A DNA stretch of 64,000 nucleotides from the NCBI RefSeq assembly GCF_024502345.1, contig NZ_JALDNN010000001.1, one strand, 5' to 3'. Positions within the stretch are counted from its first letter, which is position 1; each line of letters begins with the position of its first letter. This stretch comes from Escherichia coli (GTDB lineage: Bacteria; Pseudomonadota; Gammaproteobacteria; Enterobacterales; Enterobacteriaceae). A program made the translations under genes and the position numbers. The notes under the pieces were generated by a model that worked only from the letters and a program-made list of their open reading frames with translations, was not told where the DNA came from and searched no databases. Of the stretch, positions 5,333-51,895 are shown one piece after another.

Positions 5333-6080
5333 AACTTGCTCCTTAGCCGTTATCGTTTCGAACATGTCATCCTTTTCATTATTTACATCCTTGTCCGAAT
5401 CGTTGTTCAATATAGTAAACGCCTATAAGAACTTTGCCCTTCGTGAACTAATACGTCTATTAACACTAATCAATACTTCAGATTTATCCATCACGCACTC
5501 CATATATTGATCCTAAGTAAGATCCCTGGTTGTTATCAGCTTGTAAATAGTAAACAAAAAGTTAACGTTTGCGGATTACTGCCCAAGAATAAGTTATCAA
5601 TAACCAGTTTGTGATCTCTGAAGAATATTACTAAAGTTAAAATGTAATCCGATTTAAATATCGAGTCTCCTTGTTTCGACTTAAGCTGGCAATTGGATTG
5701 CCAGCTTTCTTTTAACGCATTGAAATTACCTGAGTAAATAACGCATTCATGTCTTCAGGTTTTTATATAGCGTCTGGAGACATGGATATTTATGCAATGT
5801 AATCAACGCCAGTTGCAAAAAAATGAACCCGGATTACTTATTTAACCGCCCATAGCATCAACGCTTACGGAACTCTTTGTTCACTTTCCCACAGCACTTT
5901 TAAAACATTAAACCTGACTACGGAAAATATCAGCCATGATAATGTTTGAAATGGCTAATTTGCCATGGAGTGAAAAAAATTAGATGAAATTCAGTAGGTT
6001 GAAATAATCACTAGCAGGTAATTATTTCAATGATAGTGCGCAATTGATCTACAACACTGCGTAGCGGAGAGAGTATTAAT
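5333..6080 (-). promoter_or_regulatory. Long AT-rich gadE upstream regulatory region (multiple promoters expected; an antisense sRNA arrS is reported in this leader)
   Basis: About 750 bp non-coding AT-rich sequence upstream of gadE; knowledge of the gadE sensory-integration region; individual promoters not mapped here. Confidence 0.5.
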
Positions 6081-21640: not shown

Positions 21641-21956
21641 ATTTATTAACCTTCCAATACCATCCTGAAAAGTATGAACGCGTAAGGGATAACGCGCGAA
21701 AAAGTTTACATCTGTCAGAGATTCTTAATATTGATGCGGTGAATAGATTAATACACTATTACAACAGAAAATAACCAGCTGATCACACTAATGATGGAAA
21801 ATATGATGGTGTTAAATATTGTATTGGCTGGGGATTTTGATTGCGAACGCAGACCGTAGGCCAGATAAGGCGTTTACGCTAATCAGGTAACAAGGCGCGC
21901 CAAAAAGCAAAACGCCCGCATATGCGGGCGTTCAGGAACACGTCGTGGAGGGAAGA

Positions 21957-22391
21957 TTATTCTTCTTCGTCGCGCAGCGGAACAATCAGCATATCAACGT
22001 GAACGGTGTTGATCAGCTGACGTGCGGAAGACATCAGTTTGCTCCAGAAGTCCTGGTGGTGACCACAAACCACCAGATCCATATCGTATTTCTTGATTGC
22101 ATCGACCAGAACCTGGCCCAGGTCGCCGCTGCCGCTCAGGGTTTCAGTGATTGGGTATCCTGCATTAGTGGAAAGCTCGGTCAGTGCATGATGTGTCTCT
22201 TCAGAGATGCGTTTCTGCATATCACCCAGATTCACATCAATAAGCCCGGTGTATAGGTCAGAGTAGTTTACATCTACGTGGATCAGAGAAACTTTCGCAT
22301 TGTAGGGGCGAGCCATAGAGACTGCTTTCTCTACCAGAACTTTGCTTTCCGGGGAGAGATCGACCGCGATGAGAATGTGTTTATAAGCCAT
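21957..22391 (-). CDS. uspA: Universal stress protein A, 144 aa
   Basis: ORF translation [50 protein letters not shown]... Confidence 0.97.
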
Positions 22392-48996: not shown

Positions 48997-51195
48997 TTAT
49001 CTCCTGCGCAACAATCTTAACGCATTCGCTGTCACCAGCACCGTCGCACCCGTATCTGCCAGCACCGCCAGCCATAGTCCGGTCATTCCTAACAGCGTGG
49101 TGACGAGGAAGATCCCTTTCAGCCCCAGCGCAATAGTGATGTTCTGGCGGATATTGGCGTGAGTGGCGCGTGCCAGTTCGATCATTTGCACCAGACCGCG
49201 CAGGTGGTTATGGGTTAATGCTGCGTCGGCGGTTTCCAGCGCCACGTCTGTGCCGCTGCCCATTGCAATCCCGATGGCGGCAGCTTTCATCGCTGGCGCG
49301 TCGTTAATACCGTCACCGACCATCGCCAGCGGCGCATGTTGATTCAGCTCGGTCACCGCTTTGACTTTATCTTCCGGCAACAGGCCCGCTTTAAACTCCA
49401 GCCCCAGCTCCCCGGCAATTGCCGCCGCTGCGCGTGGATTATCGCCGGTGAGGATCACCCCTTTGACGCCCAGCGCGTTCAGTTCACTGATGGCAGTTGC
49501 AGCATCGGCGCGCAGGGTATCCTGTAACGCAATGACACCAAGCACGTCATCGTTACGTACTACCAGCACTACCGTTTGCCCGGCGCTTTCCAGTTCGTTA
49601 ATTAAACCAGCAAATGCATCAGCGGGATGTTTCCCGGCAGCGCAAATCAATACGCGCTCACCGTTAACCTGCGCTTCAATGCCAGACCCGACCAGCGCCC
49701 GCTGTGATTCGGCGGCGGGAATGGCGAGTGCAGCAACCTGTGCTTCGCGCACGATGGCCTGCGCCAGTGGATGCGTCGCGCCTTGCTCGACCGCCGCCGC
49801 CAGTGTCAGCAGTTCAGATTCACTAATACCCGTTGCCGGATGAATCGCGGTAACGCGCGGTTTACCGACGGTCAGCGTACCGGTTTTATCAAACGCCACC
49901 TGTGTAACACGACCTAGCTGCTCCAGCGCCGCACCGCCTTTAATTAACGCCCCACGACGTGCCGCTGCTGCCAGCCCGGAGGTAATCGCCGCGGGCGTGG
50001 AGATAACTAACGCACACGGGCAGCCAATCAGCAGCAGCGTCAGCCCTTTATAAATCCACTCTTGCCAGCTGGCGGCAAATAGCAGCGGCGGCACCAGCGT
50101 TACCAGCAGGGCGACGGCCATAATTGCTGGCGTATAAATACGGCTGAAACGGTCGATAAACCGCTCAATGGGGGCGCGGCGCTCTTCGGCTTCTTCGATC
50201 AGTTTCAGAATCCGGTCAATGGCGCTGGCACCCGGTTCTGACAGCACTTCCAGCGTTACCAGACGGTCTACGCTGGTGGCTCCTGCAGGAACTTTATCGC
50301 CCGTCGCGCGCTCCACCGGAATGGATTCTCCGGTCAGGGCGCTTTCATCAAAACTGGCAAACGGTGAGAGCAGTTTACCGTCGGCAGGCAAACGCCCACC
50401 TGCGGCGACTTCAATCACATCGCCAGGCCGCAGGCTGTTAATCGCCACCTCTTCCCGCTCACCGTTACGCAGGCGCGTGGCGGTTTCTGGTTTCAGCGCC
50501 ATTAACGCGCTAACGCCCTGACGCGCGCGGCTGGCGGCCCAGCCTTCCAGTCGTTCACCAATCAAAAACAGCAGCAACACCATCGCAGCTTCAGCCGTTG
50601 CGCCAATAAACAGTGCACCAATAGCGGCTACGCTCATTAAGGTTTCAATGGCGAAGTAGCTGCCGGATTTGATCAGCCGTAATGCCTGACGAGCAATCGG
50701 GTACAGCCCAACCAGCGTGGTCGCGATAAACGCCAGTTGCCCAAACGGATGATTAAATTGCTCCAGACCCCAGCTGATTGCCATCATCACGATTAGCGTA
50801 ATCAGCGGCAGATTCTCTTTCAGGCGCGATGCTTGTGGCTCGTCGGCGGCCTGCTCATCGCGCAGGGAATAGCCCGCTTTTTGCACCGCAGATTCAACCT
50901 GGGCACGGATGTCATTGTCGGCATCGACCACCAGTTTTTCGGTGGCGAACAGTACCTGCACCTGATTCACACCTGCAAGCTGGCGCACGGCATTTTCTAC
51001 CTTGCGCGCACAGGCGGCGCAGTCCATGCCGCTGACTTTCCAGCTATAGCGGGTGCCGGAGACGTTTTCAGAGAGCGTTGGCGAGCTGGAACATGCGCCG
51101 TCGCAGCAACAGTCGTTGGCGTTCTGTACCGTGGTTAGCGGTTTGAACGCAGCAAATTGAGGGGCTTTCTTGCCGTGATTGTCAGGAGTCGACAT
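48997..51195 (-). CDS. zntA: Zn/Cd/Pb-exporting P1B-type ATPase ZntA, 732 aa
   Basis: ORF with N-terminal GMDCAAC metal-binding motif, CPC transmembrane motif and DKTGT phosphorylation site. Confidence 0.97.
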   Translation of the reverse strand: MSTPDNHGKKAPQFAAFKPLTTVQNANDCCCDGACSSSPTLSENVSGTRYSWKVSGMDCAACARKVENAVRQLAGVNQVQVLFATEKLVVDADNDIRAQVESAVQKAGYSLRDEQAADEPQASRLKENLPLITLIVMMAISWGLEQFNHPFGQLAFIATTLVGLYPIARQALRLIKSGSYFAIETLMSVAAIGALFIGATAEAAMVLLLFLIGERLEGWAASRARQGVSALMALKPETATRLRNGEREEVAINSLRPGDVIEVAAGGRLPADGKLLSPFASFDESALTGESIPVERATGDKVPAGATSVDRLVTLEVLSEPGASAIDRILKLIEEAEERRAPIERFIDRFSRIYTPAIMAVALLVTLVPPLLFAASWQEWIYKGLTLLLIGCPCALVISTPAAITSGLAAAARRGALIKGGAALEQLGRVTQVAFDKTGTLTVGKPRVTAIHPATGISESELLTLAAAVEQGATHPLAQAIVREAQVAALAIPAAESQRALVGSGIEAQVNGERVLICAAGKHPADAFAGLINELESAGQTVVLVVRNDDVLGVIALQDTLRADAATAISELNALGVKGVILTGDNPRAAAAIAGELGLEFKAGLLPEDKVKAVTELNQHAPLAMVGDGINDAPAMKAAAIGIAMGSGTDVALETADAALTHNHLRGLVQMIELARATHANIRQNITIALGLKGIFLVTTLLGMTGLWLAVLADTGATVLVTANALRLLRRR

Positions 51196-51237
51196 GGCAT
51201 CCTCCGGTTAAGTTTTTTCTCATTAACCGAAGGATAC

Positions 51238-51259
51238 ACTCTGGAGTCGACTCCAGAGT
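51238..51259. promoter_or_regulatory. ZntR (MerR-family) operator within the zntA promoter
   Basis: Perfect 22-bp palindrome actctggagtcgactccagagt between a -35-like TTGACT and -10-like TATCCT (minus-strand sense) with the long spacer typical of MerR-type promoters. Confidence 0.85.
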
Positions 51260-51268
51260 CAAGTTTTA

Positions 51269-51895
51269 TCAGAGATACAGCGAGCGGACGATGAGGAAAT
51301 GACCGGCAAAGTAGCAGGCCGCAGCAATCGCGTTATCTGCCCGGAAGCGGCGGCGATAGTGGCTACCCAGCCAGACAAAGTTACTGATAAACAGCAATGA
51401 AGCGCCAACAAACGCAGAGAGTGCCGGAGCGGTCGGACGGAAGAACCACAGTTCACCTGCCAGCCACACCATCACCAGCGTCATGCCGATAAACGTGCAG
51501 ATAGGCCAACGATACTCTTCCAGCCGCGTCCAGATAATCGCCAGTAACAGCGCGCCCAGAACCAGCAACACCAGTGGCAGAGGCCAGAAGAAAGAGAGCG
51601 TCATCTGACTGGCGAAATAGATGGTGTACAGCAGGTGCGAGAGGAAAAACGCGCCGATGGCGTACATCAGACGTTGACGTGGCAACAGGGTTAGCGCATC
51701 GCCCAGCAGTGAGGCGCACAGCCCTGCCAGCACCAGATAGCTAATGGCGTCGAACATCGGCGCTTGCCAGGCCAGTAACAGCAGGAGAAGAAGGGTTAAC
51801 GGTTTAAACACCCAGCGTTGCCAGGTTGGCCCACGATACGATGCATCCACAGATAGCCATGCGGAAAGACAGACAGCGATAAACGACCAAAGCAT
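51269..51895 (-). CDS. yhhN: Inner membrane protein YhhN (lysoplasmalogenase-like family), 208 aa
   Basis: ORF translation [51 protein letters not shown]... Confidence 0.9.

Follow-up and report, generated by a model that had tools for sequence, protein, structure and literature searches.

The ZntR operator palindrome in the zntA promoter of Escherichia coli and an inverted repeat in the zntA leader

A perfect 22-bp palindrome (ACTCTGGAGTCGACTCCAGAGT) at positions 51238-51259 of the window, the 64-kb stretch of Escherichia coli DNA analyzed here, was identified with near certainty as the operator of ZntR, a zinc sensor of the MerR family, within the sigma-70 promoter of zntA. As a ZntR operator the palindrome is fully known already, and the first-pass annotation was right to label it known biology, the exact 22-mer having been published (PMC1526738). 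The result confirms a textbook regulatory site and, with the operator located to the base from sequence alone, serves as a positive control. Comparison across genomes added three refinements: a 10-2-10 dyad with a free centre, a 20-bp spacer backed by conservation, and a promoter type that reaches MerR-family operons in other phyla. An inverted repeat in the zntA leader may be a new observation.

Operator, promoter and flanking genes

The letters at 51238-51259 of the window are actctggagtcgactccagagt. The repeat finder returned two arms of 11 nt each (51238-51248 and 51249-51259), 100% complementary and with a spacing of 0 nt, and ACTCTGGAGTCGACTCCAGAGT was single-copy in the 64-kb window even with up to 3 mismatches allowed. 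By direct reading, repeat finding and uniqueness, the perfect 22-bp palindrome claimed in the first-pass annotation proved exact to the base. The 22-mer was found in 0 of 100 dinucleotide-preserving shuffles of the window. For perfect palindromes whose arms reach 11 nt or more, the expectation is 0.015 per 64 kb; arms of this length were seen in 4 of 100 dinucleotide shuffles, and the real window holds two. The second perfect 22-bp palindrome (AACGCCCGCATATGCGGGCGTT; 21911-21932) is followed by TTTGCTTTTT on the minus strand just past the end of an ORF (21957-22391, minus strand) and, judged by its letters, resembles a common intrinsic terminator.

On the minus strand the promoter reads ...ctctGAtaaaac TTGACT ctggagtcgactccagagtg TATCCT tcggttaatgagaaaaaacttaaccGGAGGatgcc ATG tcg.... 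The -35 hexamer TTGACT occupies 51257-51262, its last 3 bases being the first 3 of the palindrome, and the -10 hexamer TATCCT occupies 51231-51236, 20 nt after the -35. The spacer (CTGGAGTCGACTCCAGAGTG; 51237-51256, minus strand) was counted on the sequence at 20 nt; the optimum for a sigma-70 spacer is 17. Between the two hexamers the dyad fills 19 of the 20 spacer positions and extends 3 bases into the -35. The operator lies 43 nt upstream of the zntA ATG (51195), and the Shine-Dalgarno sequence GGAGG of zntA lies at 51201-51205 (minus strand). A consensus scan of 50900-51600, limited to spacers of 16-18 nt, returned no promoter, as expected of an overlong spacer. That the spacer is overlong, as first annotated, was borne out by the arrangement TTGACT-N20-TATCCT, for which 20 bp is also given in the literature (PMC1526738, PMC3431237). 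The annotated placement of the operator inside the zntA promoter stood, with the wording corrected to assign both promoter and gene to the minus strand; the operator is not wholly within the spacer, as it shares ACT of the -35 hexamer and ends 1 base before the -10.

The gene controlled by the operator is a metal export gene, zntA (48997-51195, minus strand), encoding a Zn(II)/Cd(II)/Pb(II)-exporting P-type ATPase of 732 aa; its product gave a full-length match to NCBIfam NF033775 (ZntA) at 1450.4 bits (cut-off 1240). The gene past zntA is tusA. Upstream and co-directional lies yhhN (51269-51895, minus strand; Pfam YhhN, 160.6 bits, and RefSeq annotation), with its stop codon TGA at 51269-51271 (minus strand), 6 nt before the zntA -35. 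RefSeq labels the same 505-nt DNA as yhhN and zntA, and between the yhhN end and the zntA start the sequence matches K-12 MG1655 at every base. The NF033775 match, the RefSeq labels and the promoter identity with K-12 together upheld zntA as the annotated target gene.

The closeness of the yhhN stop codon to the -35 favours an alternative in which the palindrome is not an operator bound by protein but primarily an RNA hairpin, acting as an intrinsic terminator or stabilizing the 3' end of a yhhN or antisense transcript. Read-through RNA from yhhN folds the palindrome into a perfect hairpin, and the plus strand was flagged by the terminator scan (9-bp stem, then CAAGTTTTAT). On the plus strand, however, no gene ends upstream of the palindrome, that side being the antisense of zntA, and on the minus strand past yhhN the letters after the hairpin are GUAUCCUUCGG, which lack a U-run. 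The T-run characteristic of an intrinsic terminator was found on the plus strand only; GTATCCTTCGG trails the hairpin on the minus strand. Between yhhN and zntA no terminator was found, the T-run being wanting after yhhN on the minus strand. A terminator was rejected because the T-run occurs only on the strand with no gene end and none follows yhhN. The number of terminator-like sites in the region scan (1) was close to that expected in shuffles (0.8). The fixed -35 and -10 hexamers around the palindrome and the conservation of the stem in sequence, as opposed to covariation in structure, across genera point to a protein site, and the published binding of ZntR (PMC1526738, PMC3431237) also speaks against a hairpin. 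A primary role as an RNA hairpin was accordingly judged very improbable, and the palindrome is treated below as the ZntR operator.

Conservation within E. coli and across species

Among 5426 complete E. coli genomes, all but one (5425) gave a megablast match to the 505-nt region. The 44-nt core (51225-51268) was conserved at 100% identity in 5399 of 5425 E. coli genomes, and the 505-nt query with its coding flanks reached at least 99% identity in only 767. The regulator gene zntR was recorded in 5425 of the 5426 complete genomes of this species, and the operator in an equal number. In K-12, zntR lies ~167 kb from zntA; within the 64-kb window, tblastn gave no match to zntR better than E = 3.3. 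From the species, zntR is presumed to be present in this very genome.

One genome per species was scanned across ~100,000 species with the pattern CTCTGGAGTNNACTCCAGAG, yielding at least 120 loci. The pattern fixes 18 positions, which are conserved by construction, so that the informative positions are the others. A ZntA homologue starts ~55 nt downstream, in the right orientation, in 107 of the 120 matches listed, and in 6 further matches listed a contig end truncates this promoter. Among the matches listed, 107 of 108 related loci carry TTGACT as their -35 (a position outside the pattern), and TAnnnT stands exactly 20 nt after the -35 in 103 of 108; at the remaining listed loci the -10 position reads CATACT (4 loci) or CAGGAT (1 locus). 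Published spacer counts for PzntA disagree, at 20 bp (PMC1526738, PMC3431237) versus 19 bp (PMC9189660), and the retention of TAnnnT at 20 nt favours the reading of 20 bp over 19. Among the matches listed, 101 of the 108 related loci retain the outer A/T of the 22-mer. The central dinucleotide is CG in 60 of the 108 listed loci, followed by CC, TG, GG, CA, TA, TC and others. With the central dinucleotide free, the recognized dyad is ACTCTGGAGT-NN-ACTCCAGAGT (10-2-10), and the perfect 22-mer is, on the sequences compared, a trait of E. coli and its closest relatives.

The full promoter, TTGACT-CTGGAGTnnACTCCAGAG-TAnnnT with a 20-nt spacer, was also found on contigs L004, L063, L041, L051 and L011 of metagenome-assembled genomes (MAGs) from Acidobacteria, Bryobacterales and Gemmatimonadetes, with a merR-family gene directly behind it (promoter positions 98-129 in L004 and 5555-5586 in L063). 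The product encoded on L004 carries the Pfam domains MerR-DNA-bind and MerR_1. In the Acidobacteria and Bryobacterales loci, next after the merR-like gene come a DUF2703-like/thioredoxin-like gene and a gene for a Cys-Cys membrane protein. The occurrence of the promoter before merR genes in other phyla indicates that the ZntR-type half-site is used well beyond Enterobacterales, in an autoregulated arrangement. In Alkalimonas amylolytica (L029) the same operator, with -10 TATACT and the promoter at ~6030-6061, lies upstream of a cluster of small secreted/membrane proteins, CopC/CopD-like by eye, and 2.2 kb downstream comes a ZntR/CadR-like merR gene.

The presence of this promoter before merR-like genes and non-zntA operons in the Acidobacteria, Gemmatimonadetes and Bryobacterales MAGs is what would be seen if another MerR-family regulator (e.g., CueR or a Cd/Pb sensor) used the site alongside ZntR, or were its main user, and the site were thus not specific to ZntR. 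Against this, the published regulator of the site in E. coli is ZntR, of which zntA is the only known target (PMC9189660), and operator and zntR occur in equal numbers of E. coli genomes. The CueR signal also differs, ACCTTCCC-(5)-TGGAAGGT (PMC1526738), which makes use by another regulator unlikely in E. coli. Overall, this alternative was given the lowest likelihood of the readings considered, and the site is retained as specific to ZntR.

Leader inverted repeat and half-site repeat in the zntA coding start

Upstream of zntA the repeat finder returned an inverted repeat (GTATCCTTCGGTTAA / TTAACCGGAGGATGC; 51197-51237, minus strand), for which a function is proposed below. On the minus strand it runs from G51237 to C51197 (GUAUCCUUCGGUUAA...UUAACCGGAGGAUGC), taking in the final base of the spacer and the -10 hexamer at one end and stopping 2 nt short of the zntA ATG at the other. 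In a full-length RNA, the -10 region would pair with the Shine-Dalgarno sequence GGAGG (51205-51201). The RNA of 51268-51170 was predicted to fold into an operator hairpin and a leader hairpin (-39 kcal/mol, z = -6.35). Transcription of zntA presumably starts ~7 nt after the -10, the literature searched holding no coordinate for the zntA start, and the RNA beginning at this point was predicted to be unstructured (z = 0.06).

Because the upstream arm precedes the presumed start, the hairpin would be formed only by transcripts reading through from yhhN. A second layer of control is therefore conceivable, although the odds are against it, in which yhhN read-through RNA would fold into two hairpins that bury the ribosome site, ZntR-activated transcripts would start within the repeat and stay open, and ZntA synthesis would then depend on ZntR alone. 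As the start site was placed indirectly, insulation of zntA translation from yhhN read-through is offered as a hypothesis. If true, it would explain the tight zinc control of a pump placed 6 nt behind another gene, and would be relevant to the many biosensors built on the zntA promoter.

Among the matches listed, 87 distinct zntA leaders from Enterobacterales gave a mean z of -4.3, with the hairpin in most. In Enterobacteriaceae-type leaders among the matches listed (n = 51; ZntA at least 67% identical), the Shine-Dalgarno sequence was paired in 48 when folding began at the -10, and in only 4 when it began at the presumed start. Leaders of Erwiniaceae and Morganellaceae are unrelated in sequence, and the hairpin was still formed at the same place. 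RNAalifold, run on a MAFFT alignment of 49 leaders, gave no consensus structure, as indels throw the two arms out of register; structure was instead judged by folding each sequence and by counting pairs in 27 ungapped leaders of 47 nt. In the latter, 88% of cells pair, compared with 32-57% in slid registers, and only 3 pairs carry double changes, a number not above that of the slid registers; covariation in these 27 leaders is modest and not decisive. The end of yhhN lies at most 40 nt from the -35 in 95 of ~115 related loci among the matches listed. Also among the matches listed, the Shine-Dalgarno sequence was paired in 70 of 95 loci with an upstream co-directional yhhN versus 8 of 20 without, a weak association that is confounded by phylogeny.

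An Rfam search of 50900-51600 at a permissive threshold returned only matches far below threshold to miRNA-precursor-like families, reflecting the hairpin shape. A literature search for structure in the zntA leader returned nothing relevant, only a sigma-S SELEX peak inside zntA. Two further readings of the leader were tried and rejected. A leaderless small ORF starting at a conserved AATG in the hairpin loop was dropped, as both the ATG and the frame are lost in Citrobacter-type leaders. The resemblance of TAATGAGAAAATTATCATTA to a Fur or Zur box is partial; the inner part is absent in E. coli, and the Erwiniaceae sequences at this place are unrelated.

Codons 1-5 of zntA (ATGTCGACTCCTGA; 51182-51193, minus strand) repeat the operator centre and right half (GTCGACTCCAGA) over 12 nt at 92% (repeat finder). 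In 24 of the 108 related loci among the matches listed, 12-13 of 14 bases match the operator half; such matches were found in Enterobacter-, Klebsiella- and Kluyvera-type loci. Ser2 is encoded by TCG in 38 of 38 MSTP-type starts among the matches listed, and the wobble bases of Thr and Pro vary. As explanations for the repeat, a ZntR half-site, pairing with the left operator half in read-through RNA, and a relic of duplication are all conceivable, and it could form part of a leader-hairpin device.

Mechanism and comparison with known MerR-family promoters

Promoter geometry, target gene, identity with K-12 and conservation in E. coli and Enterobacterales were observed directly here; ZntR binding, its footprint, and zinc-dependent repression and activation are taken from the literature. 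In the proposed mechanism, a ZntR dimer would sit on the two ACTCTGGAGT half-sites between TTGACT and TATCCT, encoded by a gene located elsewhere on the chromosome. With the hexamers 20 bp apart, 3 bp above the optimum, they would be out of phase for RNA polymerase, giving weak basal transcription, and metal-free ZntR would slightly repress the promoter. Zn(II)-ZntR, at the same position on the DNA, would kink and underwind the operator centre; this distortion would align the hexamers and activate zntA, the 20-bp spacer behaving as a 17-bp one. According to the literature, ZntR is bound at this site in both metal states, and Zn(II), as well as Cd and Pb, flips it from weak repressor to activator.

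The published ZntR site is the identical 22-mer in a 20-bp spacer (PMC1526738), so that a check for a published operator located elsewhere produced no refutation. PzntA has also been described with -35 TTGACT and a spacer of 20 bp, versus 19 bp for other family members, by the laboratory that described ZntR (PMC3431237); the same source, which gives the footprint borders second-hand, describes DNase I protection by MerR, CueR and ZntR as spanning the -35, the dyad-bearing spacer and the -10. Titration of zinc with ZntR on PzntA gave repression at low zinc and ~10-fold activation at high zinc, and a ZntR site moved downstream of a promoter or outside the core promoter acted as a repressor site only (PMC9189660, where the PzntA spacer is counted as 19 bp). 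Deletion of zntR has already been reported to abolish completely the induction of zntA by zinc and cadmium (PMC9189660). Activation by distortion across the MerR family has been summarized, and ZntR activates even when the RNA polymerase is heterologous, which points to a mechanism acting through the DNA (PMC9909328). The MerR-family distortion mechanism named in the first-pass annotation is thus supported by the protection data (PMC3431237) and the zinc switch (PMC9189660), with the physical kink drawn by analogy.

A search of the PDB copy for a ZntR-DNA complex returned none, only a C-terminal ZntR fragment (1Q08/1Q09/1Q0A); the nearest structural models are a CueR-DNA complex (4WLW) and CueR transcription activation complexes (6LDI, 6XH7). 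The kink at the central base pairs of the zntA operator is for this reason modelled on the MerR and CueR structures and would be located there by analogy. The variable central dinucleotide is consistent with deformation, and not base readout, of this stretch.

Compared with the K-12 PzntA/ZntR operator (Brocklehurst et al., 1999, PMID 10048032; Outten et al., 1999, PMID 10608803; as cited in PMC3431237 and PMC9909328), which from these citations has the same 22-bp palindrome, -35 TTGACT, 20-bp spacer and -10 TATCCT, the site in the window shows zero differences and is that element, carried by a different E. coli strain. PmerT/MerR (Tn21, Tn501) and PcopA/CueR (E. coli), like PzntA, carry a dyad operator between the -35 and -10 in an overlong spacer, and in both the regulator stays bound and is converted from repressor to activator via DNA distortion. 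PmerT further shares its -35, TTGACT, with PzntA (PMC3431237). In contrast to the 20 bp of PzntA, the spacers of PmerT and PcopA are 19 bp, and the CueR half-sites, in their 19-bp spacer, are unlike those of ZntR (PMC1526738). DNA-bound structures in the PDB copy likewise separate the two regulators, being present for CueR and not for ZntR.
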